Shown piece after piece: positions 40,009 through 58,251 of a stretch of 64,000 nucleotides of DNA. A program made the translations under genes and the position numbers. This DNA is from an uncultured Pseudomonadota bacterium (GTDB lineage Bacteria > Oederibacteriota > Muellerivitia > Muellerivitales > Muellerivitaceae). The notes under the pieces are model-generated. The model searched no databases, was not told the origin of the DNA, and worked only from the letters and a program-made list of their open reading frames with translations. The stretch is from assembly GCA_963836235.1 (NCBI GenBank), contig CAWIIP010000002.1:1152001-1216000 (forward strand), given 5' to 3'. Within the stretch, counting starts at the first letter, position 1. Each line of letters opens with the position of its first letter.

Positions 40009-40123
40009 GGGGGACTCCTATGTTACTTATTTGAGTAACATTATTTTAAGCCCCGGCCAGACGGAAAGCAAGCGTTCGGACAGCGGATTTTTTGTCCAAC
40101 CCGGGTCCCCGTCGTGGACAACT

Positions 40124-41071
40124 TCACCCGCCGCCTTTTCGATCATACCCACATTTCCCACAAAATTTTTGGTTGTGTTGAATGGGATGCCCGCACGTGA
40201 GACACCGCATGGTTTTTAACCAATAAAAGACTAAGTAATAGAAAAGGGCAAAAAACAAAACCCCGGTCAAAATTCCAAACAATGGGTTTATGAAAAGCAT
40301 CATAAAAAGATTGAAAAAGATAACCGAAATATAAGAGGTCGTATTTAATGAATAAAAACCACCATGGAATTGTTTGATGAAGGCGGGAAGATCCATATAA
40401 CTATTCGGGGGAACAAGAGGCTGAACAGGGTATCTAATTGTGGGAAAGGACTTGTCCTCAAATTTGAGTACCTCCGGGGTGGGGGTAGGTAACAATTCCG
40501 ATGTTCCCAATTCATTTGATTCCGACGCCCGCAACAAGAAGCTAATGTTTTTATAACAAAATGGGAGACCGTCAAAAGAATTACTCCGTTCCACAACCTG
40601 ATGAACAAGTTTCATATCCAGTTTTATATTTTTTCCACCCACGGCAAGAGTGAGCGGTTTTTGAATTGGGGTTGGCACGACGGTCGGGCAGAAAAAATAA
40701 TCGTTTTTAAAATCCTTAGGGAATTGTTTCGTATGCGGTTCTGTCTTGGGGAGGATTTCGATATTGATCCCGTCAAAATTCATTCCTAAAGCAGGGCCAG
40801 CAGTGCATATTCTTAACAAGAACAACGAACCATCCTTTTTTTGGAGCCATGCGCCATAGGTGTTCTGGAGCCCGTCCTTCGTTTTGCCCAGTTGAAATTT
40901 CAGATCGCATGGAAGTTTATAGGTCGTTTGCGGGTTGGTGACGCTCTCGAATGTTTGGACAAGCAAAGGCTGGTCCGATCGGCCATGGCCCTGAATCGCG
41001 AAAATGCCACAAAGAATGATGATCAGACTCATTACGAAATAATGACGAGGCAACAGATAACGCAGCTTCAT
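40124..41071 (-). CDS. Cassette: hypothetical membrane protein with C-terminal zinc ribbon
   Basis: N- and C-terminal TMs; CLTCG...CGKCG; start uncertain (41071 or 41107). Confidence 0.7.
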   Translation of the reverse strand: MKLRYLLPRHYFVMSLIIILCGIFAIQGHGRSDQPLLVQTFESVTNPQTTYKLPCDLKFQLGKTKDGLQNTYGAWLQKKDGSLFLLRICTAGPALGMNFDGINIEILPKTEPHTKQFPKDFKNDYFFCPTVVPTPIQKPLTLAVGGKNIKLDMKLVHQVVERSNSFDGLPFCYKNISFLLRASESNELGTSELLPTPTPEVLKFEDKSFPTIRYPVQPLVPPNSYMDLPAFIKQFHGGFYSLNTTSYISVIFFNLFMMLFINPLFGILTGVLFFALFYYLVFYWLKTMRCLTCGHPIQHNQKFCGKCGYDRKGGG

Positions 41072-41176
41072 CGATACCCACTTCCTATTCAGAAACGAAA
41101 GTGCCAACTTTATTATCCTGCTGTTTACCAGATTTTACCTGTCCACTCCGGGTCCCCGTCGTGGACAACCTTGGTG

Positions 41177-41842
41177 TCATAAGCTCCAAAATTCGTAACC
41201 AAGAGAAAATAACCCATCTAGATGTTGGCCAAAACCATTGATGGATCTCCCATCATTACTTTTAAGGGTATTGTTATAAATATAACCCTCCCCTAGTTCG
41301 AGTCTTGCGTCCAAAACAAAATTACCGAGTTCAAATGAAGCGCCAAAGTCGAACCCCCAATCCAATGGGTTGTAGGAAGGAGTGGTTGACGCTGGAAAAC
41401 CGGCGGGGACCGAAGGGCTATAGAGCCCCTGTAAAAGCAAACCGGTATAGGGCCCAAACAAAAGGTTTGCTTTAAAATCCTGGATGGTCAGAACCTTTCC
41501 TTTCAGGAGGAGCGGTATTTCCAAATAGGGGAAAGGGTAACGATAACTTGGATAGTTAGGATTACTGTAGACATCTTCATCCCCTTTTAAGACATATAAA
41601 AGCTCAGGTTGGAATGATAGGAAGTCATAGATTTTTATGTCGGAAAACAACCCCACATTGAACCCATAATAACCCGCACCCCCAAAGTAAAAAGTTCCTG
41701 TTCCTCCTACAGCTGGATAAATTTGGCAATTAGTAACACCCGCCTTAACCCCCAACGTGACTGGATCGGCCCAGGAATACATGGATGAAAAAAATTGGAG
41801 GAAAAGAAAACAACTAGTAATAAATAAGCTTGGCTTCATCAT
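41177..41842 (-). CDS. Cassette: porin-family outer-membrane beta-barrel
   Basis: LGVKAG, LSFQPELLYVLKG, YLEIPLLLK, GPYTGLLL, DWG, LGYEF. Confidence 0.8.
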   Translation of the reverse strand: MMKPSLFITSCFLFLQFFSSMYSWADPVTLGVKAGVTNCQIYPAVGGTGTFYFGGAGYYGFNVGLFSDIKIYDFLSFQPELLYVLKGDEDVYSNPNYPSYRYPFPYLEIPLLLKGKVLTIQDFKANLLFGPYTGLLLQGLYSPSVPAGFPASTTPSYNPLDWGFDFGASFELGNFVLDARLELGEGYIYNNTLKSNDGRSINGFGQHLDGLFSLGYEFWSL

Positions 41843-41932
41843 GCCTCCCTATTCTGGACAACTTATCTTGCCTTTATTTTAGCTCTTTGACGGCAAAAGG
41901 GTTGTCCACGACGGGTCCCCGTCGTGGACAAG

Positions 41933-42796
41933 TTAAACAACGGCCTTGATTCGTTTCCAATCCTCTTCAATAAAACCAACCACACTGTCATCCTGATTCG
42001 ATCCGATGATCTGATGGGCATGTTTCTTTAATTCCGGCTCGGCGTTGCTCACGGCGATGCTTCGATCCGCTATCTTGAACATCTTGATATCGTTCATGTG
42101 GTCCCCAAAAACCACCAATTCCCTGTCCTGAAGTCCCATTCGCTCCTGAAGAGTGCGGATCGCCTGGTCCTTGGTTGCCCGGTGGTCGTGGATGGTCAGC
42201 CAGTGCCAACCACGACAATAGATGTCCTCAACAAAATGGGTTTCCACCCCTGACCCATGACTTTTTTGGATGGTTTTTTCCAAAGGTTGTAAGGTTTCCT
42301 CTTTCCCAATGACCGTCAGGCAAACCACATCTTGGGATTTGATGGCTTCGAAATTCCTTACCTGGAGAAGCCGATGGTCGTTATTTTTCCTACGGTCGTT
42401 CAAATAAAATTCCATCCCATCATTCTTGATCTCGCTGTAATAAAGCCGGTCATTTTCGCCGTCGAACGCGGATACGAAAGGCAGGTGTCGATGATCCAAA
42501 ATGGTTTTGAGGAGGTCTTTCACGATCTCAGGTTGGATACAGTTGATGAGCTGATGGTCACCGGTTTGGTAATCAGAAATAAAAGCGCCGTTGAATTCGA
42601 TGACCGGCAAAGCAAGGGAAAGCCCCCTTAAAACCTGGCGGATGGAAACGATGCTCCGGGCACTGGCAACGGTGAACAGAAGTCCTTCCTTCAATAAAAA
42701 CTCTAAAGTGCGCAAGGAAACATCGGACAATTTCCCATTATTGGCAAGAAGGGTTCCATCCAAGTCCGATATATATAATGGTTTCGTCGAAGTCAT
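41933..42796 (-). CDS. Cassette: Cof-type HAD-IIB hydrolase
   Basis: SDLDGTLL, ASAR, FNGA, ATK, FGDHMNDIKMF. Confidence 0.92.
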   Translation of the reverse strand: MTSTKPLYISDLDGTLLANNGKLSDVSLRTLEFLLKEGLLFTVASARSIVSIRQVLRGLSLALPVIEFNGAFISDYQTGDHQLINCIQPEIVKDLLKTILDHRHLPFVSAFDGENDRLYYSEIKNDGMEFYLNDRRKNNDHRLLQVRNFEAIKSQDVVCLTVIGKEETLQPLEKTIQKSHGSGVETHFVEDIYCRGWHWLTIHDHRATKDQAIRTLQERMGLQDRELVVFGDHMNDIKMFKIADRSIAVSNAEPELKKHAHQIIGSNQDDSVVGFIEEDWKRIKAVV

Positions 42797-42875
42797 GTCC
42801 TATTATTCTTCATCGGTTTCTTTCGCGCCAAGGATTTTCCCTTGTCCAATCTGTGTCCCCGTCGTGGACAACCAC

Positions 42876-43307
42876 TTAACCAATCTTCTTATATAAAAAG
42901 TACCGTTCGCTTCCCTTTGGGAAGTGTTTTAAGGAACCAAATCTTTTAAAACCTAATTTTCGATAAAATCCCGGAGCTTGGAAATCGAAAGTGTCCAAAT
43001 GGACATACTTGCAGCCCCTCTTTTTTGCAACTGCCTCAGCCTTATTAAGGAGTTGAGTTCCAATGTCCTTGTTCCTGTGTTTTTCATCCACCCATAACAT
43101 TTTTACAAAAAGCCAGCCCCAATAGGTGCCGCTGACCAAACCGGCGATCAATTTCCCCTTGGAGTCGATGGCCTCAAAATCCAAGTCCTTCCAATTGAAA
43201 CGGCCAATCTTTTTCGCGTTATAAGCATTGAGTTCTTGGACAACCCTATTTCGGAATTTTTTATTCGATGACGATACGGGTTTGATTGAAGCTGAAGTTC
43301 TTGTCAT
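42876..43307 (-). CDS. Cassette: GNAT N-acetyltransferase
   Basis: LWVDEKHRNKDIGTQLL, LDTFDFQAPGFYRKLGF. Confidence 0.92.
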   Translation of the reverse strand: MTRTSASIKPVSSSNKKFRNRVVQELNAYNAKKIGRFNWKDLDFEAIDSKGKLIAGLVSGTYWGWLFVKMLWVDEKHRNKDIGTQLLNKAEAVAKKRGCKYVHLDTFDFQAPGFYRKLGFKRFGSLKHFPKGSERYFLYKKIG

Positions 43308-43410
43308 GCCGCCCCTTTACGCCTTAATAAATAATCATCGCCTGAAAAGGTTGTCCACGACGGGTCCCCGTAGTGGACAGATTTTTTATATCAAAAGGGC
43401 GAATTGGAAT

Positions 43411-44544
43411 TTATTGGATTTCCCGGATCAGGTTGTTGTCCTGGTCCGCGATGTAGATTTTCCCGGAGGAATCCACCGCGATTCCATCAGGCTGGTTGAA
43501 AAGGGCCTGGTAGCAATTTCCGTTGGTTGAACCCGCGACCCCCACTTTTCCCAACAGGGTCGTCACCACGCCCCCTGGGGTAATTTCACGGATCAGGTTG
43601 TTCCACGCGTCCGTCACGTAAACATTTCCGGAGGAATCCACCGCGACCCCAAGGGGCATATTGAAAGACGCCGCGGTCCCGATTCCGTCGGCCGAGCCGG
43701 CTGACCCGGACCCCGCCAGGGTCGTCACCACGCCTCCCGGAGTGATTTTCCGGATCATGTCGTTGTAAGAATCCGCGACATAAACATTCCCCGAAGAATC
43801 GACCGCGAGTCCAACGGGATTATAAAAAGACGCGGCGGTTCCGGTTCCGTTGGTGGCCCCCCAGGCACCCGATCCCGCCAGGGTCGTCACGACGCCGCCC
43901 GGGGTAATTTTCCGGATGAGGTCGTTGGTTTGATCCGCCACATAAACGTTTCCGGAAGCATCGACGGCTATTCCCCAAGGTCCGTTGAACGAAGCGGCGG
44001 TTCCCGTTGCGTTTACCGCGCAACAAGGCCCGCCTCCGGCCAAGGTGGTCACCACCCCACCGGGGGTTATCATCCGGATCAGGTTGTTAATGGTATCCGC
44101 GACATAAACATTGCCCGAAGAATCCACCGCCAGGGCGTAGGGAGTATGAAAGGACGCGGCGGTCCCGGTGGCGTTGACGGCTCCAATCGCCCCGGACCCG
44201 GCCAAGGTCGTTACTACCCCACCTGACGTGATTTCCCGTATCAGGTTGTTGTAAGTATCCGCCACATAAACATTCCCGGAAGAATCCACGGCGGCCCCCG
44301 TAGGGAAATTGAACGACGCGGCTGTACCAGTGGCGTTGACGGCTCCAACCAACCCGGACCCCGCCAAGGTCGAAACGATTTTCCCGCTACAGGTGGGGGT
44401 AGGCGAACCTGTGGCGGTAAAGGTTTTGGTGGGAGGTGGAGCGGGAGTTGGAACGCTCAGAGGGCCTAACGTATAGGTCTTCTGGCAAGCCAGGGGGAAC
44501 AGGCCGATCAAGAGGATTACCGCGATAAGGAAAAGTCGATTCAT
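43411..44544 (-). CDS. Cassette: NHL-repeat lipoprotein
   Basis: Lipobox PLAC; six repeats of F..P.G.AVDSSGNVYVAD..N..IR.IT. Confidence 0.9.
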   Translation of the reverse strand: MNRLFLIAVILLIGLFPLACQKTYTLGPLSVPTPAPPPTKTFTATGSPTPTCSGKIVSTLAGSGLVGAVNATGTAASFNFPTGAAVDSSGNVYVADTYNNLIREITSGGVVTTLAGSGAIGAVNATGTAASFHTPYALAVDSSGNVYVADTINNLIRMITPGGVVTTLAGGGPCCAVNATGTAASFNGPWGIAVDASGNVYVADQTNDLIRKITPGGVVTTLAGSGAWGATNGTGTAASFYNPVGLAVDSSGNVYVADSYNDMIRKITPGGVVTTLAGSGSAGSADGIGTAASFNMPLGVAVDSSGNVYVTDAWNNLIREITPGGVVTTLLGKVGVAGSTNGNCYQALFNQPDGIAVDSSGKIYIADQDNNLIREIQ

Positions 44545-44638
44545 ACTTGCCTCAATTATAGAAGCGTAACGAAGATTGGATTATACCCCTTTTACCTGTC
44601 CACGATGGGTCCCCGTCGTGGACAAGTGTTTTCGTTGA

Positions 44639-44923
44639 TTAATGAGCGGCCAGATGGTGGCGTTTCTTTTTAGCTAGATAGTGCTGGTCCAATCCTTGGC
44701 GAAGGATCGATTTGATAACTGCTTGGCGGCTTACATTCATTTCGCGGACCAACCCATCCAATTCCTTAAGCATGTTTTCCGCGAAATCCACATTGACCCG
44801 GCGGATGGCCGGCATCATTTTTCCGTGGTTCGTAAAATGTTTCGAGATGTTCTCCCCTTTGTCAGCCATTTGAGCTAATTGTTCAGCCGTTGGAACTGTT
44901 TTTGCCTTATGAATGGTTTTCAT
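44639..44923 (-). CDS. Cassette: CopG/RHH antitoxin (BrnA-like partner)
   Basis: RRVNVDF..ML.ELD...VSRQAVIK; overlaps the BrnT-like gene. Confidence 0.8.
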   Translation of the reverse strand: MKTIHKAKTVPTAEQLAQMADKGENISKHFTNHGKMMPAIRRVNVDFAENMLKELDGLVREMNVSRQAVIKSILRQGLDQHYLAKKKRHHLAAH

Positions 44924-45185
44924 ATAATTTCCTTTCTTCCTTAGTGGATTTCCAAAGAGTGACTAAGTGAATGTACTCGCCATCCCGATCCGTTCTCTCT
45001 TCATAGATCACGGTATAGAGCCTTTCCCCAACCCAACCAATAGCCCGCCATTGCTCCGGTAAATCCGAACGCTGGTCAAGGTAGTAAGGGCTTTCCCAAA
45101 GCATTTGGGCTTCCTCGAAACCAATGCCACGTGCCCGGTTCCGACGAAGGCTATTGCTCTTGTTCCTGTCGAACTTAAACCGCAT
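44907..45185 (-). CDS. Cassette: BrnT-family toxin
   Basis: F.FDRNKS...GIGFEEA...AIG...R......I.L.T..KST..ER..YE; palindrome GTATAAC-T-GTTATAC at 45197-45211. Confidence 0.85.
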   Translation of the reverse strand: MRFKFDRNKSNSLRRNRARGIGFEEAQMLWESPYYLDQRSDLPEQWRAIGWVGERLYTVIYEERTDRDGEYIHLVTLWKSTKEERKLYENHS

Positions 45186-45302
45186 CTACGCTCCATGTAT
45201 AACTGTTATACCATCTATTCCTGATTACCTCAAGAAAGCATCCGGCACGAATTTAGGTGTCCACGACGGGTCCCCGTCGTGGACAGCCTTTGAATGGGTT
45301 CC

Positions 45303-47021
45303 TCATTCAAAACCATAGAATGAATAAGGAACTGATTTTGAATCTTTCACCGTGCTGTTGACATAAACTTTACCGGAATCGCTGTCGTAGAGCCAACCTA
45401 TGTTACTACCAGTGGGGACTTCCCCCTTTTTGGCCATAGTGACATAATTTCCTTCCGGGCTTTTGGCACTTGCGACAAAAGCGCTAGTGACCTGGACCAT
45501 GGGAATAACTTGGGTTCCGGATGTATCCCTGCTTTCCATCACAGCCTGTTCCAGTTTTTCGGATGAGGCCGGCCAGCGATGGTGTTTTTGATGGTATGAA
45601 TGAACCCCTATATAAATCCGCAACAAATCACAACGAGTACAAGTTTCGTTCGTTTTTTCGACCATCTGGGCAAAGCGTGGCCTAGAGAACGAACTCATCA
45701 ACCATGTTTTTCTCCAGTCATCATCACGGACATGTTCAGCGGCGGCGGGACCCATTTTGAGAGCTTTCATATATTGGACACCATAATCATATTGGGAACC
45801 CTGGTCGAATAGCAAAAAGGGCCAATAAATGATTCCAAAGAATTTGCTAATAGCATTGCCTTCGAGGGTTACATATCCCCACCAACCTAATTGGCAAAAA
45901 TCCGTCAAATAAAATTTAAACAAGTCGTTTTGCATCGCTGTAAAAAATTCAGTTCTGATCCTACTCGGCTCAATGAAAGGAAAAAGCTCCATCCCTCCTT
46001 TCCCTTTTACCTCTAAAAGCGGCAAAACTCGCTCGGCTGGAGCCACCATCATTCCCGCAACGGCCACACCTATCATTTCTCCAATTAAGGTATGGGTTTG
46101 ATCCACCATATCTGCCAATAGGAACCCCTCCTCAAGGCTGCGGACCGCACCTTGGGCATTTCCGTCCATGGCTTGCACGGTCGCCCGAAAACGGATCAAA
46201 CGCGCAAGAGACAAAAGATGTGTCATCCGTGGAATAGCGATTTGCCAAGAGGGTTTATGATTCCAGTCAATTCCCCAATCTACTCCCTTGTATTCCGTAG
46301 TGGCGTCGATCAACCGGAAAGCATCTTCATGTTCTTTCAACAACTTTCGGGCATAGGCCTTGTCCTCGGCTGTCACGAGACCCTGGGAAACCCGGTGGGT
46401 GAAATAAATCGCGAATTCATCTTCAGCCATCTTTCCAAAAAAGGGCTGGTTGGTCAGGTTGGGCTGATTTTTATGATTCCCATATTTCCGTGTGTTTTCG
46501 GAAAACCTGCCATTGGGTGCGGGGTCATCATAAATTGCCGATAGCCCTCCGAATTTACGCATGGAAGGCGAGTTCCAGGCCTCGTTGATGAGGACAACGG
46601 CGTTTTGATCGTCCGGCAGCACGGGTGCATTTGACGAGGGTTCAAGGCTGTACCCGCCTTCTATGACGTCTTTTTGTGCGATGTTCAGGGAGATTTGCCC
46701 CATATACCGCCAAAAAAAACCGCCAGCTACATAACCCAGGATCATGAATAATAAAAACGGAAGGATGGAGCTAGCGAGTGCCCGAAACCCATTTTTCTTT
46801 TTGCGGTATTTCGGGAACGATTTTCTCCACAACCAAAAAAGGAAAGGGACTGATGCCGCCAATAACAGAAGAGTGATTGCCCAAAACCAAAAGGACTTGG
46901 TATCGGACCAAGGGGTTAAGCCCGACCAAGGCATGATTTTGCCAAGCCAGAAACCCGGCAAAGTTACCAACAATAAACCAGCTACCACTGGGGGCCAGAC
47001 GGTTTTCCAAAGAGATTTCAA
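45303..47021 (-). CDS. Cassette: hypothetical membrane protein
   Basis: 572 aa, three N-terminal TMs; helical body; C-terminal YHQKHHRWP...GWLYDS segment weakly reminiscent of pseudopilin heads. Confidence 0.7.
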   Translation of the reverse strand: MKSLWKTVWPPVVAGLLLVTLPGFWLGKIMPWSGLTPWSDTKSFWFWAITLLLLAASVPFLFWLWRKSFPKYRKKKNGFRALASSILPFLLFMILGYVAGGFFWRYMGQISLNIAQKDVIEGGYSLEPSSNAPVLPDDQNAVVLINEAWNSPSMRKFGGLSAIYDDPAPNGRFSENTRKYGNHKNQPNLTNQPFFGKMAEDEFAIYFTHRVSQGLVTAEDKAYARKLLKEHEDAFRLIDATTEYKGVDWGIDWNHKPSWQIAIPRMTHLLSLARLIRFRATVQAMDGNAQGAVRSLEEGFLLADMVDQTHTLIGEMIGVAVAGMMVAPAERVLPLLEVKGKGGMELFPFIEPSRIRTEFFTAMQNDLFKFYLTDFCQLGWWGYVTLEGNAISKFFGIIYWPFLLFDQGSQYDYGVQYMKALKMGPAAAEHVRDDDWRKTWLMSSFSRPRFAQMVEKTNETCTRCDLLRIYIGVHSYHQKHHRWPASSEKLEQAVMESRDTSGTQVIPMVQVTSAFVASAKSPEGNYVTMAKKGEVPTGSNIGWLYDSDSGKVYVNSTVKDSKSVPYSFYGFE

Positions 47022-47226
47022 ATTAATATTCCCTTCTCCATTACATGCAAAAGAAAATTGTTAGAAATCCCAAAACACCTCGTTGGCCCATAATAAAGCC
47101 GCCTCGATTGGCCGGACCGGAACCGGTTTATCTCATCTTGGTCCGTTGAGATATGCTCCTGAAAACAGGGGCCATCCATTTTTCCTTGTCCACGACGGGT
47201 CCCCGTGGTGGACAACCAAAACCTAT

Positions 47227-47811
47227 TTATTTGCGATCAACCCATTTTTCCACAGATGTTGGAATATAAGCTTCCATTTCCTTAAGAAGTTGTTCCGGCT
47301 CTTGGGCCACCAATATCATTTGACGGTGTTCCTCCCTCAAAAAACGCTGGTCAACGGCGTGGTCCAAAAAATCCATCAAACGGTCGAAATAACCACGGAC
47401 GTTTAAAAAACCAACCGGTTTCGAATGGATGCCCAACTGCGCCCAGGTCAAAACTTCTGTCACTTCTTCCAATGTTCCCAGACCCCCGGGCATGGCAACG
47501 AACCCGTCCGACAATTGGAACATCTTGGTCTTTCTTTCGTGCATTGTTGGAACAACGTGAAGTTCCCCCAGGCCCTTATGGCCAACCTTTTGATTGAGTT
47601 CTTCGGTAATGACCCCAATCACTTCCCCCCCATGGCTCAAAACCGAGTTGGCGATCTCCCTCATTAGACCCACATTCGCCCCCCCATAGATAAGCGAACT
47701 ACCCCTCTGCGCCAGCCTCTTTCCCAACTCGCGGGATGCATCGACATACTCGGGGTGAGCCCCTGGGCTGGAGGCACAATTGACGCAAATTCTTTTTAGT
47801 TTTCCAGACAT
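47227..47811 (-). CDS. Cassette: LOG-family nucleotide phosphoribohydrolase
   Basis: YGGANVGLM, MHERK, PGGLGTLEE, QLGIHSKP. Confidence 0.93.
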   Translation of the reverse strand: MSGKLKRICVNCASSPGAHPEYVDASRELGKRLAQRGSSLIYGGANVGLMREIANSVLSHGGEVIGVITEELNQKVGHKGLGELHVVPTMHERKTKMFQLSDGFVAMPGGLGTLEEVTEVLTWAQLGIHSKPVGFLNVRGYFDRLMDFLDHAVDQRFLREEHRQMILVAQEPEQLLKEMEAYIPTSVEKWVDRK

Positions 47812-47888
47812 TTAAACCACCTTTATAAAAAACCATCACTTAAATTTACCTATCCAAGAAGGATCCCCGTCGTGGACAACCAAAATAT

Positions 47889-48572
47889 TTAAGCGGGGAG
47901 CAATCCTGGCAATTCCATCAAACTCTGTATAACGGGAACTTCTAAACCCGATTCCACACCCCTGCTTTTGCGGTCCAGCCAAATACCTTTCATCCCGGCT
48001 TTTTGACTGCTCCTAGCATCTGTTTCTAATCGATCTCCTACGTAAACACAATCTGTCAATGGAACTCCCGCTTGTTTCGCGGCCAATTCAAAGATGGCTT
48101 GTTCGGGTTTGGCGCAACCCACCTCACCGCTGATGATGACGGTCGAAAAATATGGTTCCAAGTCTGTCTTTCGGATTTTGGACCGGTGTTGTTCCTTTTC
48201 ACCGTTGGTGATTAGCCCTAGGGAGCGTCCTTTCAGGGACCGCAAGCATGGAAGGGAGTCGGTGAAGAGTTCCCACCGAGATTCATAGGTATCCAGGTAC
48301 ACCTGAAAACGGGCATCTGCCTCGATCTCGGAAAGAGGATGGGAAAAGATTTCCCTCACCCTACCCCTGCGGCGTTCCTCTGTAGTCAACCTCAGGAAAG
48401 GAGAATTTGACTGGAAATATTTTTCCGAAACGGTTTCCCAACGCAAAAGAAAATCTTCCAAGTCTTCCTTAAAAGAAGACCGGTAAGTTTCATAGACCTT
48501 TGTGGCCCCGGCTTTGGCTGCGGCGCTGTGGTCCAAAAGAGTATCATCGAGGTCAAAAAATACCATGGTCAT
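47889..48572 (-). CDS. Cassette: HAD-IA hydrolase
   Basis: FDLDDTL, ITNG, KPE..IF, VGDRLETD. Confidence 0.92.
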   Translation of the reverse strand: MTMVFFDLDDTLLDHSAAAKAGATKVYETYRSSFKEDLEDFLLRWETVSEKYFQSNSPFLRLTTEERRRGRVREIFSHPLSEIEADARFQVYLDTYESRWELFTDSLPCLRSLKGRSLGLITNGEKEQHRSKIRKTDLEPYFSTVIISGEVGCAKPEQAIFELAAKQAGVPLTDCVYVGDRLETDARSSQKAGMKGIWLDRKSRGVESGLEVPVIQSLMELPGLLPA

Positions 48573-48696
48573 CCTTTTATCCCTTGTCCACGACGGGTCC
48601 CCGTCGTGGACAAGGTCTGACTAACCTTTTTATTCTGTGTAGTATTTCGTGTCCAAACAAAACTTGGGATAGGAAAGATCGATTTTCGAAACACTT

Positions 48697-49095
48697 TTAA
48701 ACATGGGGAAACACCTTTCTTATCCATGCCTGCAAAACCAAAGCGTTGGTACAAGCGCATAAAACAATAATCAAAAACCAAGTAAAATATTTCCATTTAA
48801 ATTTGGAAGTGTATAAAAGAAACATTCTTATCAGCAACACATAAACGACGATGAAGCCATATAGTGGCACCGCGCTCCCTTCCAAGCTCCAATTAATTGA
48901 TAGCGCTTTATAAACAATCCGAAGAAGAATAAAGGGCGCGCTAACGAAATAGTATTGAACATTGGCGCTAATAATTTCGAGCCAGAAATAATTTGAATTG
49001 TTCAGGATTTTTACTTCTTTTGTTGCCCACAGAACAAAAGACACACCCGCAACTAAAACCATTTCACTGAGTAGTTTAGATTTATTAATATTCAT
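48697..49095 (-). CDS. Cassette: hypothetical four-TM protein
   Basis: Hydrophobic AT-rich ORF; the ORF-track start at 49194 crosses a repeat, so a downstream Met is preferred. Confidence 0.6.
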   Translation of the reverse strand: MNINKSKLLSEMVLVAGVSFVLWATKEVKILNNSNYFWLEIISANVQYYFVSAPFILLRIVYKALSINWSLEGSAVPLYGFIVVYVLLIRMFLLYTSKFKWKYFTWFLIIVLCACTNALVLQAWIRKVFPHV

Positions 49096-49237
49096 GTTTA
49101 TTAATGGTTTCCCGAGTTGGTCTCGAACTGGCCCGGCATTCATTCTCAATTTCACCTGTCCACGATGGGTCCCCGTCGTGGACAACCTTTTCACTAATTT
49201 TTAACCCCACCACAAGAATCACTTTTGAGTTTTCTAT

Positions 49238-50137
49238 CTATTCTTTATTCCAATCCCTCAGAAGAGAATCCACTTCATATTTCAAATGCCTGTTTTTTGT
49301 GCTTTTTGAAAAATCTTCCAATGATTTTTTAACATTGTCATTTTTCATCTTCGTTAAAATCAAAAGCGCTTTATCTCGCAGATCATCTTTTTGGGATTCA
49401 TCTCGCAAAACTTTTATAATCGGCGAAAGTATCAGCTTTTGAACATCCATCGAAGCGCCCGATTGTTCTAAAAGCTCCATTGCCTCTGCCGCTTTAATTG
49501 AAACTTCCGGTGTCATATTCAAAGCTTTAATGAGGATCGGCTTGGCTTTTTCGTCCACATAGTTTCGATCTTTTAAAAAGTCATATTCATAAAGCGAATT
49601 TATTTCGTACCATTCATTATTTTCCAACCACCTTTGGTAATAAGGGGTCACAGTTTTTAAATCATCCAAACGATACAAAATATACACGGCATTTTTATCT
49701 TTATTGTTTCCAGTCAAAAACTCCTTCATTTTTTCAATAATAATTTTTTTATCATTCTTTTGAAATACCGGATCATTTTTCAAAGATGAGACTAACGCAC
49801 CCAGGACATAGAACGGGGAAAGGGATTTTAAATCGGTGGGATTATTTATTAAATCCAACACAGGCCCGATGGCCCGTCGGTCCCGCGAATTTGAAATCTG
49901 TTTTAAGGCTGCCTGTTTTTCCTCTAAATTCCCATTCTTAAGTTTTTCCAATAACTCGGATAAATGAGCCTGTATTGTTTGGGCTTCGGCCCGGGTTAAT
50001 TCTTCGGTCTTAACTCGACTTAACCGTTTTTCATCTTCATTACCAACGCTCTGTTTCTCGGTTTGGCCAAAACCGGGCGGAACACTTAAAAAGGTTAGCG
50101 TTATTAAAAATAATGCATTCCTCATAATTGATTTCAT
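49238..50137 (-). CDS. Cassette: exported HEAT-repeat-like protein
   Basis: Signal peptide; helical repeats (AIGPVLDLI, AKPILIKAL, LRDKALLIL). Confidence 0.65.
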   Translation of the reverse strand: MKSIMRNALFLITLTFLSVPPGFGQTEKQSVGNEDEKRLSRVKTEELTRAEAQTIQAHLSELLEKLKNGNLEEKQAALKQISNSRDRRAIGPVLDLINNPTDLKSLSPFYVLGALVSSLKNDPVFQKNDKKIIIEKMKEFLTGNNKDKNAVYILYRLDDLKTVTPYYQRWLENNEWYEINSLYEYDFLKDRNYVDEKAKPILIKALNMTPEVSIKAAEAMELLEQSGASMDVQKLILSPIIKVLRDESQKDDLRDKALLILTKMKNDNVKKSLEDFSKSTKNRHLKYEVDSLLRDWNKE

Positions 50138-50233
50138 ATAACACCTTTCAATTTTTATGGCTTTTCACCTGTCCAATGCGGGTCCCCGTAGTGGACAGCG
50201 TTTCATCTTCCTAAACGTCAATTATTTCCTTTT

Positions 50234-50626
50234 TCATTTCTTCTTTTTAAATTCCCCTACTTTAAATATTGCTTGGGCGCAAACTGCGATAACACAATTT
50301 ATTGCAACCATTGCGATCAACAACAAGACGTCCGAATCCCCCGTTAGGGCTGGAATAATGCCAAGGTAATACAGATACAACCGTAGTCCGATCATAAACA
50401 AAGCGGAGAGCAACCAAATAAGGGTGAATTTAGAAATAAATTTTCCCTTATCATCCCTAACAAATATGAAAACCAAAAAAACCATAAGAATAAAATAAAC
50501 AATAGTGCCACCGACAAGATGATGCAATTCCTCGGATAATCCCAAGGGATCCAAAATCAAATCCGACGCCCACCAGCCGCCGGCACCGATGAATATTGCG
50601 ATTAATGTTTCTATCCAGGTTGCCAC
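50234..50626 (-). CDS. Cassette: hypothetical four-TM protein
   Basis: GTG start with AGGGG RBS; four hydrophobic segments. Confidence 0.65.
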   Translation of the reverse strand: MATWIETLIAIFIGAGGWWASDLILDPLGLSEELHHLVGGTIVYFILMVFLVFIFVRDDKGKFISKFTLIWLLSALFMIGLRLYLYYLGIIPALTGDSDVLLLIAMVAINCVIAVCAQAIFKVGEFKKKK

Positions 50627-50679
50627 TTATTCACACCCCTAGTGCTTTTCCCTGTCCACGATGGGTCCCCGCCGTGGAC

Positions 50680-50831
50680 ATGTTCCAATCCATGAACCAT
50701 TCTCCATCCATCCTTAGACCCGCGCCACAAGGATAAGCCCTCTAAAACCCAAGCAGGCCCTTCACCTTATCGGTGGCCGATTTGGCCTGGTCGGCCGTGT
50801 TGACCGCGCTTTGATAATTTTTCACTCCGGC
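50680..50831 (-). pseudogene. Diverged copy of the ParB-like gene 3' end and its downstream flank
   Basis: Matches 53569-53718; encodes AGVKNYQSAVNTADQAKSATDKVKGLLGF* versus AGVKGYQSAVNTADQAKSATDRVKSLLGF*. Confidence 0.85.
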
Positions 50832-51198: not shown

Positions 51199-52685
51199 GT
51201 AACTGTTCAGGCCCCTTGCAGAGCAAAAGGAGATATGGCAACATCGTAGAGGATGAACGACACCCCTTCAATACCAACCAACTGTCCGAATTGTGAGCGT
51301 TTGCAGGCTAGGGTGGAAACTCTGGAATCCGAAGTCCAAGAGTTAAAAGCCTTGGTACGGGAGTTGACGGCCCGCTTACAGCAAAACTCTTCCAATTCGT
51401 CCAAACCACCCTCTTGCGATAGTCCTTTTCAAAAATCCCAACAATCGAAGCCCAAGAGTGACCGAAAACCAGGTGGCCAACCGGGACACATGGGATGCAC
51501 CCGAAAGCCGTTTCCCAAGGAAATGGTGACAGATGTACAGATTCACTTGCCCCTGAAATGCGGGGAATGCGGCCATGAACTGGCCAAACGGGCTGGGAAG
51601 AGAGACCCCGAACCTCAAGTGCATCAAGTGGTGGAAATCCCACCGTTCAAGCCGGAGGTGATCGAACACCAAGTCCAGGGCCGGTGTTGTTCTTCCTGCG
51701 GGAAGGTAACCTGGGGAATGCTGCCGGAGGACGTTCGGGGAAGTTTCGGACCTCGGTTAACGGGGTTGATCGCCTTCTTCAGTGGCCGGTGCCAAATGAG
51801 TAAACGGGTGGTTCAGGAGGTTTTGGAAGGGTTGTTAGGAGTGCGGATGGCCCTGGGAAGCTTGAGCGCCAAGGAACGAGAAGTCAGTGAAGCCCTGAGA
51901 GAATCCTGGGTGGAAGCAAAAGAAGCGGTACGGCAGTCGGCGGTGAAGAATGCGGATGAGACGGGATGGTACCTGAGCGGGAAATTGAAATGGCTCTGGG
52001 TTGGCACAACGCCGCGGGTGGCGGTTTTTGAGGTTCAGGAGCACCGGAACCAGGAAGCGATGAAGGAATTGCTGGGTGAGAAGGCGAAAGGGATAGTTGG
52101 GAGCGACCGGTTCGGAGCCTACACACCGATCCCCTTGGAGCAAAGGCAGTTGTGCTGGGCCCATTTCAAGAGGGACTTACAGGGATTGATCGAGTCGGGG
52201 GAAGAGAAAGGCCAAAGGATCGGGAAAGGCTGTCTTCGGACACTGAAGGCGGTGTTTGAGGCGTGGGGGAAATACGAGGATGAGAAGGTGGGCCGAAAGG
52301 GCTTGCGACGAAGACTAGAACCACTAAAGACACGATTAGCCCGATGGTTAAAGCGGGGCCGGGAAGGTCCGGCGGACAGTACCAGCCGCCTTTGTGGGCG
52401 GGTTCTAAAACTCTATGAAGCTTACTGGACCTTCATGAGGGTGGAAGGGGTTGAACCGACGAACAACCTGGCGGAGCGGGACCTTCGGACGGCTGTTTTA
52501 TGGCGCAAGCGCAGCTATGGAAATCGGAGCCGGGAAGGGTGCCGGTTCACGGAACGCGTACTGACGGCAGTACAGACGCTTCGAAAGCAAAAGCGGAATG
52601 TGTTGGATTATCTGGCTGAGGCGGTGCTGGCCCACCGGGCAGGAAGATTGGCGCCCTCGTTAGTGTCCTTGGCCTGAACAGATAC
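51199..52685 (+). mobile_element. IS66-family insertion sequence, single-ORF type, 1487 bp
   Basis: TIRs GTAACTGTTCAGGCC / GGCCTGAACAGATAC; 8-bp TSD GAAAAATC at 51191-51198 and 52686-52693. Confidence 0.93.
51253..52677 (+). CDS. IS66-family transposase
   Basis: NSSNSSKPPS, GGQPGH, zinc finger, ADETGW, SDRF, QLCWAH, TNNLAERDLR. Confidence 0.93.
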   Translation: MNDTPSIPTNCPNCERLQARVETLESEVQELKALVRELTARLQQNSSNSSKPPSCDSPFQKSQQSKPKSDRKPGGQPGHMGCTRKPFPKEMVTDVQIHLPLKCGECGHELAKRAGKRDPEPQVHQVVEIPPFKPEVIEHQVQGRCCSSCGKVTWGMLPEDVRGSFGPRLTGLIAFFSGRCQMSKRVVQEVLEGLLGVRMALGSLSAKEREVSEALRESWVEAKEAVRQSAVKNADETGWYLSGKLKWLWVGTTPRVAVFEVQEHRNQEAMKELLGEKAKGIVGSDRFGAYTPIPLEQRQLCWAHFKRDLQGLIESGEEKGQRIGKGCLRTLKAVFEAWGKYEDEKVGRKGLRRRLEPLKTRLARWLKRGREGPADSTSRLCGRVLKLYEAYWTFMRVEGVEPTNNLAERDLRTAVLWRKRSYGNRSREGCRFTERVLTAVQTLRKQKRNVLDYLAEAVLAHRAGRLAPSLVSLA

Positions 52686-52743
52686 GAAAAATCATATTCT
52701 TTTTTCATAGTTTTCCCGTTCCTTTCGCGTGGCTTTTCTGGCC

Positions 52744-53043
52744 TTAGCGTATTTCCGAAATCAATTCTGGATGGGATTTAAGAATGCGGATCAGTTTTGA
52801 CGCGGAACCACTGGGCCGTCGAATGCCCTGTTCCCAATGTTCAACGGCATTAGCACTTGCGCCCACAACTCCCGCAAACCCGGCTTGGGTCAAATGCAAA
52901 GCTTTACGAACGCCTTTCACTTCATCAGCGGTAGCCGGTTTTGGCCGGTAGCTTTCCCGCATCCCGTGAAGTTTCTTGCCTTTTTTGATCTCGATGGATT
53001 GCTTGAGGCTCTTCCGCATCAGCTTGAAGTCTTTATCGTTCAT
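52744..53043 (-). CDS. HigA-like XRE HTH antitoxin
   Basis: VRKALHLTQAGFAGVVG...VEHWEQGIRRPSG. Confidence 0.85.
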   Translation of the reverse strand: MNDKDFKLMRKSLKQSIEIKKGKKLHGMRESYRPKPATADEVKGVRKALHLTQAGFAGVVGASANAVEHWEQGIRRPSGSASKLIRILKSHPELISEIR

Positions 53044-53460
53044 TTCTTACCTCCTGTTTTCCCTTTGCCCAAAGCCTGCCGCAAATCTTGGACTAGGATC
53101 TTTTCTTGTCCGGCTGTTAGATCCGGAGCCTTTCGCTTATCGATGATGAAAAAGAGGTAAATGTCATCAGGCTCATCGAAAAAGTACCAAACCCGGTAAC
53201 CACCGCTATTCCCCTGTGGCGAACCCACCAGGTGAGCCACACGACTTGGGTGTGCCCGATCAAAATTTTAAAAAGATCGGGTGCCCTTCGGGCCTCTTGG
53301 TTGAGGCAACGCGCAACTTATGAATGCCACCCCCTAAAAGCTTCCCGCCAGCGGGGTTGTTGTTGATGGCTTCTTCAATCGCGACTTGTAAACCATCCTC
53401 ACGAATGGCGTCGATCAGTTTTGAATAGATAGGCGACTGGATAAAATGGTGTCGTTCCAT
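53040..53460 (-). pseudogene. HigB/RelE-family toxin frameshifted by a 73-bp insertion
   Basis: Deleting 53211-53283 joins GGIHKLRVASTKRPEG to NSGGYRVWYFF...DKRKAPDLT in frame; operator palindrome TCCTACA-T-TGTAGGA at 53480-53494. Confidence 0.8.
53211..53283. repeat. ~70-bp structured mini-element, copy 1 (copy 2 at 55342-55409)
   Basis: CCCCTGTGGCGAACCCACCAGGTGAGCCACACGACTTGGGTGTGC versus CCCCTGTGCTGAACCCACCGGGTGAAGCACATGCCTTGGGTGTGC, each followed by a different hairpin. Confidence 0.8.
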
Positions 53461-53628
53461 TACCCATCCTTTTAATATATCCTACATTGTAGGACTTTTT
53501 GGAAAACAGTCAAGATTCACTTAAACCGGCTGATAAAGGTTGTCCACGACGGAGCCCCGACGCAGACAATGTTCCAATCCATCAACCATTTTCCATCCAT
53601 CCTTAGGCCCGCGCCACAAGGATAACCC

Positions 53629-55299
53629 CTAAAACCCCAGCAGGCTCTTCACCCTATCAGTAGCCGATTTCGCCTGGTCGGCCGTGTTGACCGCGCTTTG
53701 ATAACCCTTCACTCCGGCACCTATTTGGGCTAACACGTCTCCCCCTTTTGCGGGGGTGGGGTTACCCGAAGAGTTGGGCGCTTGCTTGGTCTGTACCGAG
53801 CCCGTTTGTGTGGCTCCGGTTCCTCCGCCACTCTGGCTCGGCACAACCAAGGCTTGTCCCCCGGCTTGAGGGCCGGGGGACAGGTGACCCGAAACAACCT
53901 GGCTTGCCGGGGCTGAGTTGGAAACAATCCTCCCTATTCCCCCTTGGCCTTGAAAGGTCGGGCGGGTGGCGGATGGGCTCAACCAGGAGTATAAGATCCC
54001 AGTCCAAAATCTATTCATCAACCGGCCCGTGAGATTGATGAGGGTGCTTCCCACGAACAGAAAAAGAACAAGGGTGAGCAATGTCGCCAAAGTGGGGTTC
54101 TTGATGCCCAACCCCGCGAAGAGGCCCCGGGCCCGGTGGAAAAGCCGGGTCAACCCGGGTAAAAGCCGGTTCATCAATGGGGAAGGTATATGAAGCTTCT
54201 TCCCCAATTCGTGGCCCGCGATAGTGGTTGCGACCTGGGAATGGAGGTCCGGCTTCGCCGAGTTAGAAGTGAGGAGTTGGGAGTTAGGAGTTGAACCGGC
54301 TTTAGCCCCTTTACCACCGCCCGTCTCCCCAACCGCCTTCACAGGAGAAACACCCCTCACCCTACCCTCTCCCGCAAGGGGCGAGGGGTTTACCACCGAG
54401 CCCCCTTTTGTGGCTCCGGTACCTACGCCACTCTGGCTCGGCGCAACCACCCGTTGTCCGCTATCGCGGCCAAGGGCGATAGAACCCATCGAAGCTTGTC
54501 CCCCGACTTGAGGGTCCGGGGACAGGTGGGCTTGTCCAAAGGCTTCCGGGGGGTTGCCGGCCGAAACCCACTTCACCAGCGCCTTCACCTGGGGGCCACT
54601 CATTTCACGGGACAGGATGACCGGTAGGGTCTTCTCCACCAGGGCCTGAGCCTCCTGGAGGGTCCGCTTATTCCAGAGGCTGGCCAGCGGAAACGCGACT
54701 TTCTCTAAAAGACCCCATTTTTCCTCATTTTTCGATGGGCCTTTTTTCAGGGGTTTTTCAACATTCCGGAACGGTTCCGGATTGCCATTATTCCCCTTAT
54801 TTTTAGATGGGTCTTCCAGCAAACTTTCCCGGATCAAACTCCGGGAGGCGGGGTTAAGAACCGCTAGCAGGCTTCGCGCCCGCCGAACCCAGGTGCTATC
54901 CACTCCCTCAAGGGCCCCAATCGCCTCATCGGTCAGCCTCGAACCCGGCGCGAAATAATTTTCCCAACTCTCGTACTCTTCCAGCCAATTCAGGGCCTCA
55001 CTCCGGTTGGACGTACGGGCCAGCCGTTTGGCCTCTTCCAGGCTGACGTGGAAAATCTCGGCTTCAATCAGGGGTATCCCCAGCTGCCGGTAAACCGTCA
55101 AGCGCCTCTGGCCCGCGATGACGGACTTTCCATCCCCTCCCCAAACCCAAATCCGGGGGATGGTGCCCCCCGCCTCCACGTGGGCTTTCAGGGCGGCCAA
55201 ACCCGGCACGGACATGGTCTTGCGGGGGTTCCAATCGGGCACCTCCAACCCATCCGTAGGCAAAAAGCGGATATTGGCAGGCTTGGGTTCTTGATCCAT
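53629..55299 (-). CDS. ParB/Spo0J-like protein with low-complexity linker and C-terminal TM segment
   Basis: NPRK, IAGQRRL (GxRR), HTH LTDEAIGALEGVDSTWVRRARSLL, hydrophobic TLATLLTLVLFLFVGSTLI; RBS AAGGGAG before ATG 55299. Confidence 0.75.
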   Translation of the reverse strand: MDQEPKPANIRFLPTDGLEVPDWNPRKTMSVPGLAALKAHVEAGGTIPRIWVWGGDGKSVIAGQRRLTVYRQLGIPLIEAEIFHVSLEEAKRLARTSNRSEALNWLEEYESWENYFAPGSRLTDEAIGALEGVDSTWVRRARSLLAVLNPASRSLIRESLLEDPSKNKGNNGNPEPFRNVEKPLKKGPSKNEEKWGLLEKVAFPLASLWNKRTLQEAQALVEKTLPVILSREMSGPQVKALVKWVSAGNPPEAFGQAHLSPDPQVGGQASMGSIALGRDSGQRVVAPSQSGVGTGATKGGSVVNPSPLAGEGRVRGVSPVKAVGETGGGKGAKAGSTPNSQLLTSNSAKPDLHSQVATTIAGHELGKKLHIPSPLMNRLLPGLTRLFHRARGLFAGLGIKNPTLATLLTLVLFLFVGSTLINLTGRLMNRFWTGILYSWLSPSATRPTFQGQGGIGRIVSNSAPASQVVSGHLSPGPQAGGQALVVPSQSGGGTGATQTGSVQTKQAPNSSGNPTPAKGGDVLAQIGAGVKGYQSAVNTADQAKSATDRVKSLLGF

Positions 55300-55603
55300 A
55301 GAGTTCTCCCTTAAATAATTTAAATTGCGGTCATTGCGAGGCCCCTGTGCTGAACCCACCGGGTGAAGCACATGCCTTGGGTGTGCTGATGCCCAAACAG
55401 GCATCAGCTCTAGGCCATGCGAATAGCAGGGCGTTTACGCCGCGGCAACCTCGGGTTAGAACGGCATATGGGAGAAAACTACCGAATTCTTTTTTGGATT
55501 TCCAGCGTTCTTTTGAAAAAAGGGGTTTGGGGGGAGGGAAAAGGGCCGGAAGTGGACAGTCTTTGGGCAGGTTTTAACCTAGTTTTAGGACTTAAATTAC
55601 AAA

Positions 55604-56789: not shown

Positions 56790-57558
56790 TTCACCCTGAG
56801 TTAAAAATGTACACGCCTGTCCACTTTGTTCTCGGTGTCTTCAATAATCTAATGGGAAAGACTTAGAACGAATGGAACTTATTTTCAATGAATGCCAGTA
56901 ACGCGGACATAATTTTATAAACAATTCCTGCCGTAACAAAAGCAAGATATCCACCAAGTTTTGATGCGTAACTTGTTTTGAATAATTTTAATGAGTTGGC
57001 CGCTTTCATAACTAGAAACATACACTTTTGATTTCAAAAGCCAAGTGAGTATTTTTTAAAAATATAATATTTTAGTCTTATTCACAAACCATCCACAAAA
57101 TAATTTCACTTGTTCACAATCGAAGTATTAAAAACAATTATTATTTGTATAACTTCCTGATGAAAGGCACTAAAGCGGCACAGTTTAACGTTGGTGTTTA
57201 AAACATTGCGGTGAAAATCGCTGGCATTGTGCGATGCCATAGCAAAGTTGGTGGGTAGTTATTATCTAAGTGGATAGCAAGGCACTAACTAACGAGTTAT
57301 TCAACGGCCTTTATTCTTCTTCATATTGCTTGGAGTAGCTTCGGGCGGTCTAAAAAATACTTCTAATCTTAAATAACCAGCTGTCGAGCCATTTCAGAAA
57401 TGATTCCATTGCCTCACCGGAAATGAAGTTGAATTCATATTTCCTATGATCATTATGAATATTAATTTGTTTGGCATGAACAGATTGAAAGAATAAAGGG
57501 TCAGGCTGGGGTTCCCTTTCTTGTGCTCCAAATGGTTTCCCTTAGTTTAATGCCCTAT

Positions 57559-58251
57559 TCAAAACCTGACGCTCTCGTTTCTGGAAGCTCCCCGATTGGC
57601 CGGACCGTCGGTTAGGTCCTTCCCCTTTTCTTGGCCTGCCGCTGACGCAGATCCCGGCGGGTGCGCAAGGAATAAAGGGGTTTTCCAGCGCCGCTCGACC
57701 GTCGAGATGAGCAACGGGTAAATGATCGCGTGCCGGGCGGGCCAAATGGCCGCCATGTACAGGCGGGTCAAGACGCCCCGTGACTTGATATACACGGCCA
57801 GCTCGGACGCGGAACCCGGCGCGCAGCTGACGTGCATCAGCGCGTGCACGGTGTCGTTCGAGAGTTCCCACAGGGCCTCCTGGTCGAACCGGTACACCGG
57901 TCTTACCTTCGCGGCGGGTAACGGCGACGGCTCGTCGGGCCCGAAGCGGTTGCTCGCCCGGTCTGAGGCGTTGAGGCGCTCGGCGACGAAGCGTTCGGCG
58001 CACCCGGGAATGGGTTTGCTGTCCGGCGTTGAGTCCCATCCCATCGCCCGGCCGATCGCGACCCGCATCCGGAATAGGGGCGTACGCTCGACCGAGCGAA
58101 GCGCCTGCCAGAAGACCTCGAGGAAGGCGTCGAAGCCGCGGACCTGATCAAGCCGCACCTCGAAGCGCCATACGTCGATCAGCTCGAAATCCGCGGCAAG
58201 GCTGTGCACGCGCCACGGGTGGGCGAAGTGCGCCTGCTGGTTGAGCTTCAT
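57559..58251 (-). CDS. DUF2867-like protein, high-GC
   Basis: PWRVHSLAADFELIDVW, ELSNDTVHALMH, AVYIKSRG..YMAAIWPARH.IIYP; AAGGAG RBS; the C-terminus reads through a duplicated segment. Confidence 0.7.
   Translation of the reverse strand: MKLNQQAHFAHPWRVHSLAADFELIDVWRFEVRLDQVRGFDAFLEVFWQALRSVERTPLFRMRVAIGRAMGWDSTPDSKPIPGCAERFVAERLNASDRASNRFGPDEPSPLPAAKVRPVYRFDQEALWELSNDTVHALMHVSCAPGSASELAVYIKSRGVLTRLYMAAIWPARHAIIYPLLISTVERRWKTPLFLAHPPGSASAAGQEKGKDLTDGPANRGASRNESVRF
57585..57667. repeat. 83-bp diverged direct repeat of 59541-59623
   Basis: Copy of the 3' end and downstream flank of the gene at 59568-60140. Confidence 0.85.

Follow-up and report, generated by a model that had tools for sequence, protein, structure and literature searches.

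Why does a gene for a ParB-like protein sit at the edge of a cassette array, and which DNA would its product bind? We examined this question in a 64,000-nt stretch of DNA from an uncultured bacterium (contig CAWIIP010000002.1 of assembly GCA_963836235.1, positions 1,152,001 to 1,216,000), hereafter the window, with positions counted from its first letter. The ParB-like gene encodes a protein of 556 amino acids (aa) with a ParB-type fold and a predicted membrane anchor, and covarying DNA dyads are embedded in its coding sequence. We tentatively favour the reading that this protein is a Noc- or KorB-like, single-pass membrane tether or regulator at the array edge, for which its own coding dyads would be the likeliest cognate site and whose gene would be accessory cargo.

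The ParB-like protein and its family

The gene and the parts of its product are listed here with the evidence for each, where ORF is open reading frame, HTH helix-turn-helix, TM transmembrane and pLDDT the predicted local distance difference test.

53629..55299, minus strand: ParB-like gene (P0001), 556 aa, from the ORF, its translation and homologues
54820..55275, minus strand: ParB/Srx N-domain and HTH (residues 9-160), from PDB and profile matches to ParB and Noc, pLDDT and Foldseek
54550..54726, minus strand: family-specific helical subdomain, residues 192-250 (EAQALVEK...VKALVKWV...PE.F), from the AlphaFold2 model and conservation
53980..54183, minus strand: basic amphipathic helix (373-396) and TM helix (402-440), AlphaFold2 helices with pLDDT 68-88
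53641..53742, minus strand: conserved C-terminal helix, residues 520-553, ending in LGF and predicted to be extracytoplasmic, from the alignment and AlphaFold2

The ATG at 55299 agrees with the N-termini of homologues in the alignment. By Pfam alone the fold of the protein is sub-threshold, with ParB_N (PF02195) at E=0.083 and 13.4 bits against a cutoff of 26.3. The ParB fold is instead established by sequence and structure comparisons that agree with one another. Using phmmer against the PDB, residues 10-149 match Myxococcus xanthus ParB (7bnk, E=2e-5), and a family profile reaches ParB at 1e-13 and Noc at 1.3e-12. PHROGs returns 'ParB-like partition protein' at 3.7e-7. With the AlphaFold2 model as query, Foldseek matches chains of ParB, Noc and KorB (best E 2.9e-9, ~240 columns), and it gives a probability of 1.00 for ParB, Noc, KorB and sulfiredoxin. 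The model has a mean pLDDT of 58, with values of mostly 65-92 over residues 1-160 and of 58-86 over residues 200-260. Across Pfam, NCBIfam and PADLOC, the protein gives weak ParB, Noc and methyltransferase-N (ParB-like) matches and no further domain; the NCBIfam Noc model TIGR04285 scores 19.5 bits (E=5e-4), far under its cutoff of 315. A search of the ESM Atlas returns generic ParB clusters only, at 0.86-0.87, under the lead level of 0.9. A preliminary description of this DNA had read a ParB-type N-domain with NPRK and GQRR motifs, an HTH, a linker and a TM segment from the 556-aa translation, and the profile, PHROGs, Foldseek and AlphaFold2 results bear this out.

The N-domain carries the motifs NPRK (24-27), GQRR (63-66) and TSN (96-98). 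GQRR aligns with GERR of M. xanthus ParB, and homologues have GQRR, GERR or GETR. Box III of ParB (ENLQR) is kept in part: aligned by HMMER with M. xanthus ParB, the window protein retains the Asn as N98 and has S97 at the position of the Glu, and the family consensus in the profile is 'tsN'. We take the box III Asn to serve in CTP binding and the Glu in hydrolysis. N24 aligns with Q52 and S97 with E93 of M. xanthus ParB, both presumably hydrolysis residues (the PDB titles only name the mutants). The HTH is formed by helices 124-131 and 135-147, and residues 121-149 align to the HTH of ParB.

Beyond the DNA-binding part, the helical subdomain comprises helices 192-211, 214-230 and 235-246 (pLDDT 58-86), is conserved in the family alignment and is common to the distant paralogue P0156. 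Linkers predicted to be disordered span residues 162-197, 259-362 and 439-507, all with pLDDT <50. A hydrophobic 19-mer (residues 398-416, 54052-54108; Kyte-Doolittle 1.66) starts just ahead of the predicted helix 402-440 and overlaps it, and the C-terminus consists of this TM helix and a low-complexity tail. A two-copy complex prediction with residues 1-260 scores 0.33 against a mark of 0.42, which gives no verdict. As modelled, the gene encodes a membrane-anchored ParB/Noc-like relative from an undescribed family. The preliminary description had also seen no adjacent parA, and we find the same: a scan of 63 window ORFs of >=100 aa gave no match to a ParA-type family. A simple promoter and terminator scan around the gene stays at chance level, the exception being a sigma-70-like match, TTGACT-16-TACAAT, at 53513-53486, upstream of a toxin-like ORF.

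The family is large. A word-indexed search yields 12 relatives of the window protein, and an exhaustive profile search yields 281 cluster representatives at E<=1e-10, of which 119 pass 1e-30. ParB_N is found at E<=1e-4 in 40 of the 65 members scanned, and no other Pfam domain reaches that threshold in any of them. Among the 101 members of at least 450 aa, a set biased by a query profile that itself includes the TM helix and tail, a TM-like 19-mer follows the ParB domain in 78, and L[GP]F forms the C-terminus of 25. A tblastn search of plasmids with residues 1-260 gives one weak Noc match (a Clostridioides plasmid) and no family member.

Homologue loci were inspected around relatives with 43% (L001), 41% (L002) and 27% identity (L003, 850 aa). 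One metagenome-assembled genome (MAG) holds at least three paralogues, two at L001 and one at L002. The second member at L001, P0156 (13292-15265, minus strand), is 22% identical, has ParB_N at E=1.7e-7 and lies convergent to the first at a distance of 1.4 kb; by eye from the translation, its hydrophobic stretch seems to be N-terminal to the ParB domain. The first L001 homologue (9842-11859) and that of L002 (9956-11849) are each split into two overlapping frames, which reflects either a frameshift or an assembly error within the low-complexity region. A metagenomic relative, P0002 (637 aa, 55% identical), is a chimera of a DUF2867 N-terminus and a ParB-like part from residue ~112 on, so that residues 1-111 of the ParB-like protein are missing. 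In the window a DUF2867 gene (57559-58272) lies 2.3 kb upstream of the ParB-like gene, and the chimera thus points to the same gene order with a deletion in a relative, that is, to synteny with decay.

Dyads embedded in the coding sequence

Four palindromic elements within the gene bear on what the protein might bind; REP denotes repetitive extragenic palindromic.

54749..54798, unstranded: loop dyad, within the sequence coding for the disordered KNKGNN loop; core TCCGGAAC-N-GTTCCGGA (54765-54781), flanks AGGGG...CCCCT
54496..54525, unstranded: intragenic 30-bp dyad 1 (TTGTCC-N18-GGACAG), encoding HLSPDPQVGGQ, from repeats and fold
53854..53883, unstranded: intragenic 30-bp dyad 2 (TTGTCC-N18-GGACAG), encoding HLSPGPQAGGQ, fold z = -4.6
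54365..54388, unstranded: REP-like GC-rich palindrome CCCTCTCCC GCAA GGGGCGAGGGG, translated in the linker (PSPLAGEGRV), from the sequence

The embedded dyads sit in every disordered junction of the window protein (pLDDT <50), and comparison of the homologues indicates that they are under constraint at the DNA or RNA level. The same KNKGNN position is palindromic with other arms in L001 (~10505-10545, GATGTTTCCGAAC-A-GTTCGGAAACATC) and in L002 (~10517-10550, ATTGTCCAAC-C-GTTGGACAAT). When the window, L001 and L002 sequences are aligned, 93.8% of cells pair, compared with 24-50% in slid controls, and 6 of 13 stem pairs are altered on both sides. The DNA fold z-scores of the loop dyad are -3.9, -5.3 and -3.0. 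A reverse-complement codon pattern is present in 9 of the 11 [KE]NKGNN members, with the residue pairs EF/QL, SG/PR/VH/VD and VN/IN, where the background compatibility for the codon-palindrome test is 0.166 per pair.

The two 30-bp dyads differ by one compensatory pair, in which both residues are altered (D/V versus G/A). The DNA encoding the HL-x-x-[GDA]-PQ-[AVG]-x-x-Q motif forms a 12+6+12 dyad, and 23 of 155 family proteins carry this motif in codon-palindromic form, with compensated variants. Compatibility of at least 3/4 is found at 29 of 342 PQ positions, against 1.6% at other positions. ParB-family genes can carry their own binding sites, and parS of Bacillus subtilis lies within spo0J. 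Because of the apparent constraint, the location in disordered junctions and this precedent, we rank the embedded dyads as the likeliest cognate sites.

Palindromes of the REP-like CCCTCTCCC...GGGGAGAGGG type are also seen between genes, at 6530-6602 in L001 and at 12017-12098, 18319-18424 and 20482-20531 in L002.

These elements invite another explanation, in which the protein is a ToxR/CadC-style membrane regulator, or another ParB-fold protein, with its regulon elsewhere, the palindromes are RNA hairpins or REP-like elements, and the position by the array is incidental. We consider this unlikely. It is consistent with a bona fide REP-like element being translated in the linker while L001 and L002 have this type between genes, with the placement of all dyads in segments of pLDDT <50, and with the occurrence of several paralogues per genome. 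A C-terminal PDZ match in the L003 relative (E=3.9e-4, under the cutoff) further suggests extracytoplasmic sensing. As in ToxR and CadC, a cytoplasmic DNA-binding domain is followed by a single TM helix and an extracytoplasmic part, a likeness by analogy only, and the DNA-binding domain here is ParB-type, not winged-helix. Against it, the dyads are fixed in place and covary over homologues of 30-55% identity, unlike what random REP invasion would give, and the TGTCCCC...GGGGACA element is found nowhere else in the window.

The array, its sites and the place of the gene

The preliminary description had placed the gene close to the first array site and on the strand of the cassettes, and this stands: 59 nt separate its stop codon from the site at 53540-53569. 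The features that bear on the relation between gene and array are the following.

40092..50681, plus strand: 13 well-conserved 30-bp sites in one orientation, each 1-83 nt past the stop codon of a minus-strand ORF
53540..53569, plus strand: gene-proximal array-type site, decayed (TTGTCCACGACGGAGCCCCGACGCAGACAA), 59 nt past the ParB-like stop codon
50652..50847, plus strand: duplicate unit of an intact site (50652-50681), copied spacer and ORF end, and a pseudo-site junction, from repeat comparison
55342..55386, minus strand: toxin-gene relic, a 45-nt fragment ahead of the ParB-like start codon, 84% identical to 53211-53255
55552..55559, plus strand: isolated half-site GTGGACAG upstream of the ParB-like gene, from a GTGGACAR scan

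The array site is a 30-bp palindrome of 14+2+14, TTGTCCACGACGGG TC CCCGTCGTGGACAA, with the outer pentamers in the form TGTCC-N18-GGACA. At <=3 mismatches the array yields 12 matches, against 0 in 100 shuffles. The site had been described as two arms split by a 14-bp spacer, which has to be revised, since those 14 bp are palindromic too. The proposed likeness to parS is weak: the 8-nt arm TTGTCCAC only loosely resembles the half-site TGTTNCAC, and the arms lie 14 bp apart rather than abutting. Canonical parS (TGTTNCACGTGAAACA), searched across the window at <=3 mismatches, is matched only at 18787-18802, which is outside the array and not near the ParB-like gene; counted on both strands this makes 2 matches, where 1.41 are expected.

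Conservation within the sites is polar. The arm beside the stop codon hardly varies, in contrast to the distal arm; the best-kept part is one arm including the inner stem, and the centre is fixed and asymmetric. The gene-proximal site is the most degenerate full-length copy, departing from the consensus at 5 positions, and has GCAGACAA in place of GTGGACAA in the arm nearer the gene. An inverted orientation of this site relative to the others was ruled out by alignment with the duplicate, which has the same orientation; the arm is decayed.

In the duplicate unit, positions 50682-50834 copy the 59-nt spacer and the last ~94 nt of the ParB-like ORF with 89-94% identity, 2.9 kb away, and in the pseudo-site at 50818-50847 the homology to the ParB-like gene breaks inside sequence that resembles a site arm. 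We read this break as the footprint of strand exchange at array sites. On the other side of the gene, the segment copied in the toxin-gene relic (53211-53255) falls within an ORF at 53040-53240 (PHROGs phrog_5869), and a second isolated half-site lies at 56817-56824 on the minus strand. GTGGACAR occurs outside the array 4 times in 64 kb, twice within the 1.5 kb directly upstream of the ParB-like gene. Further intact sites or other repeated palindromes were not found upstream of the gene from 55.3 to 62 kb. The region from 40 to 61.5 kb is a GC mosaic of 33-66%.

Sites of the array type recur in a second genome. L002 has two, at 7368-7397 and 9760-9789, both upstream of the homologue; relative to the ParB-like gene they are oriented as the window sites are. 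The second lies 54 nt past the stop codon of an NHL/EPTP-like gene and 166 nt ahead of the ParB-like start. No array-type site is present within +/-10 kb of the L001 and L003 homologues. Counting the window, the site type thus adjoins family members in 2 of 4 loci, and it is kept across distant genomes. The expectation that homologues would consistently be followed by the palindrome or an array is not borne out in this very small sample, where sites occur at one of three loci (L002) and lie upstream there.

The gene had also been assigned the platform position that intI would hold. In the window it marks the array's 5' end, whereas in L002 it lies 3' of a single cassette, and these opposite array ends fit a platform less well than a gene between sites, that is, a cassette-like unit. 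The decay of the proximal site, the bracketing relics and the duplicated 3' end likewise speak against the platform position. We interpret the array palindromes as recombination sites and the gene as edge cargo, since the sites are polar and conserved in one arm, the junction carries a footprint, the proximal site has decayed and some homologues lack sites. The gene looks more like accessory cargo, within or at the edge of the site-bounded region, than like a recombinase or fixed platform gene.

Alternatively, the ParB-like protein could recognise the 30-bp array sites themselves and tether, compact or regulate the array or excised circles at the membrane, a model that we find doubtful. The link between gene and site proposed in the preliminary description gains from the two L002 sites and from the two intragenic TGTCC-N18-GGACA dyads, and loses from the site-less L001 and L003 and from the opposite array ends. 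In the window the gene is adjacent to the array and co-oriented with it, and the L002 homologue has its two like sites directly upstream. A scan of the window for TGTCC-N14-24-GGACA gives 15 matches, of which 14 are exactly N18 (12 array sites and 2 within the ParB-like gene), compared with 0.61 expected, and the L002 loop dyad, ATTGTCCAAC C GTTGGACAAT, has arms that match those of the array. Set against this model are the loci without sites, the gene's changing side of the array and the decay of the very site nearest to it. One-arm conservation, a fixed asymmetric centre and a strand-exchange junction are features of a recombination site, not of an operator. The window loop dyad (TCCGGAAC-N-GTTCCGGA) does not resemble the arms of the array sites, and the inner codons of the HL..PQ..Q dyad covary in other members, where TGTCC is not universal.

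It is very improbable that cassette movement is catalysed by the ParB-like protein itself, whose fold would nick the palindromes or process hairpins there. Such a role could be suspected because no tyrosine or serine recombinase is encoded in 37-64 kb, where the IS66 transposase is the only recombinase domain, and because the gene is flanked by site and half-site sequences. Yet no nuclease or recombinase domain is found in the protein (Pfam, NCBIfam, PADLOC, PHROGs), homologues exist without sites, and a host-encoded recombinase may lie elsewhere in the 2.05-Mb source contig. The sole integrase in the window is a tyrosine integrase (33612-34715) beside tRNA-Ser, part of a defence island linked to that tRNA gene.

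The cargo of the array is heterogeneous and includes GNAT, two HAD, LOG, NHL and outer membrane protein barrel genes, among others. The NHL-repeat cassette protein (43411-44544, minus strand) is built of 162-nt tandem units. It is 60% identical to the product of an NHL gene (12361-13797, minus strand) beside the L003 ParB-like gene. We take this to reflect a protein type found throughout a lineage rather than a link, and it may be a hint to the lineage of the window. A 2.7-kb segment (50848-53539) that separates the two ParB 3'-end units holds an IS66-family transposase (51253-52677, plus strand), an MqsA/HTH-type antitoxin (52744-53043, minus strand) and two 66-aa ORFs that resemble a split toxin gene (53040-53460, minus strand). 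In L002 the site at 7368-7397 directly adjoins an IS110-family (DEDD) transposase gene (6224-7397 region), a pairing that recalls, as far as the source excerpts go, IS1111/IS110 elements targeting attC or REP-type sequences. The defence and mobility island of the window spans ~10900-34840, next to two tRNA-Ser genes. It contains AbiEi, a TOTE-type archaeo-eukaryotic primase (AEP)-helicase, AAA/DUF4143 and PIN proteins, RadC, a type III-like methylase with a Res helicase-endonuclease, a TraG/TraD-like coupling protein and the integrase at 33612-34715.

Relation to known systems and a possible mechanism

Noc of Bacillus and Geobacillus is a nucleoid occlusion protein that binds NBS (Noc-binding site) sequences, and it is the closest functional analogue of the window protein. 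Both have the ParB N-domain and HTH fold (Foldseek 7nfu/7ol9, E ~5e-9; profile 1.3e-12) and no ParA partner. An excerpted account presents Noc as a ParB-like CTP switch with membrane binding (PMC8429893), and the joining of membrane association to DNA binding described there is predicted here as well. Unlike Noc, which has an N-terminal amphipathic helix, the window protein starts directly with the ParB domain; its predicted integral TM helix comes after the DNA-binding part and is followed by an extracytoplasmic tail. The protein also differs in having S97 in place of the catalytic Glu, in the lack of NBS or parS, and in that no canonical C-terminal dimerisation domain was detected.

The best sequence and structure matches are to ParB/Spo0J (7bnk/7bnr, 1vz0, 4umk, 6sdk), with which the protein shares GxRR, the box III Asn and a candidate dyad inside its own gene. 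It departs from ParB/Spo0J in the absence of ParA and of parS above chance, in the TM anchor and in GQRR instead of GERR. KorB of RK2 is a ParB-like CTPase repressor that regulates mobile DNA, and the operator that it binds is palindromic around one central base, a feature that the window loop dyad shares. The fold matches KorB (8qa8/8qa9), whereas the window has no KorA-like partner that we could see, and the TM anchor and chromosomal context are different.

The array itself resembles integrons in its co-oriented ORFs, which look promoterless and each precede a conserved imperfect palindrome, and in its toxin-antitoxin cassettes. Clusters of attC sites lacking integron-integrases (CALIN) are, in the excerpt of PMC4889954 used here, cassette arrays without a nearby integrase, and the window array has no nearby integrase either. 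The ParB-like gene is nevertheless unlike intI: its product has no tyrosine-recombinase (Phage_integrase) domain, and it is co-directional with the cassettes, not divergent. The sites are likewise unlike attC, being 30-bp 14+2+14 palindromes without the R''-L''...L'-R' layout; AAC/GTT cores are placed otherwise, as read from the sequence without an attC covariance model.

The reading that we favour suggests the following mechanism. A cytoplasmic ParB N-domain and HTH, with the GxRR patch and box III Asn kept and the catalytic Glu absent, would be followed by the helical subdomain, a disordered linker and the TM helix, leaving a low-complexity tail with its conserved C-terminal helix outside the cytoplasm. 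A putative dimer would load on a dyad-symmetric DNA site and, once loaded, hold or silence adjacent DNA at the inner membrane in the manner of Noc or KorB. CTP would be bound with slow or no hydrolysis. The cognate site would be one of the covarying dyads in the protein's own disordered coding loops, not the recombination-type palindrome of the array.

Several points weigh against this reading. A C-terminal dimerisation domain of the ParABS type was not found, as the PDB and Foldseek matches stop by about residue 250, and dimerisation is an assumption given the absence of that canonical domain. The loop dyad is unique within the 64 kb, so no regulon follows from it. Dyads 1 and 2 share the length of the array sites and their outer TGTCC/GGACA pentamers, and the arms of the L002 loop dyad, TTGTCCAAC, resemble array arms; both fit a real link to the array better than hitch-hiking. 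The embedded dyads could instead act as RNA or be tolerated REP-like insertions. Finally, the three homologue loci come from two genomes, with L001 and L002 in the same MAG and L003 in a MAG of candidate division FCPU426.

A broader proposal would join the two kinds of site. Membrane-anchored ParB-like CTP clamps would keep their own loading dyads in coding loops and, in some lineages, be coupled to a non-integron cassette system, recognising the shared TGTCC-N18-GGACA junctions and holding the array or its circles at the membrane as an accessory factor for cassette recombination or silencing. We think this combination distinctly unlikely. Among the papers listed in our literature searches, none describes ParB proteins with a TM anchor as a family, a role for ParB in integrons or cassettes, or this site sequence.

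Among the known ParB-fold CTP switches, ParB and KorB are soluble clamps and Noc binds the membrane peripherally. If the favoured reading is true, the family would be an integral-membrane branch of at least 100 clusters at 50% identity, with no Pfam domain beyond ParB_N, and would widen the ParB repertoire. Covarying DNA dyads within a protein's own disordered coding loops are unusual, and they give testable candidate binding sites. The recurrence of the 30-bp site beside a homologue in a second genome makes the link of this family to an apparently integrase-less array a concrete question.

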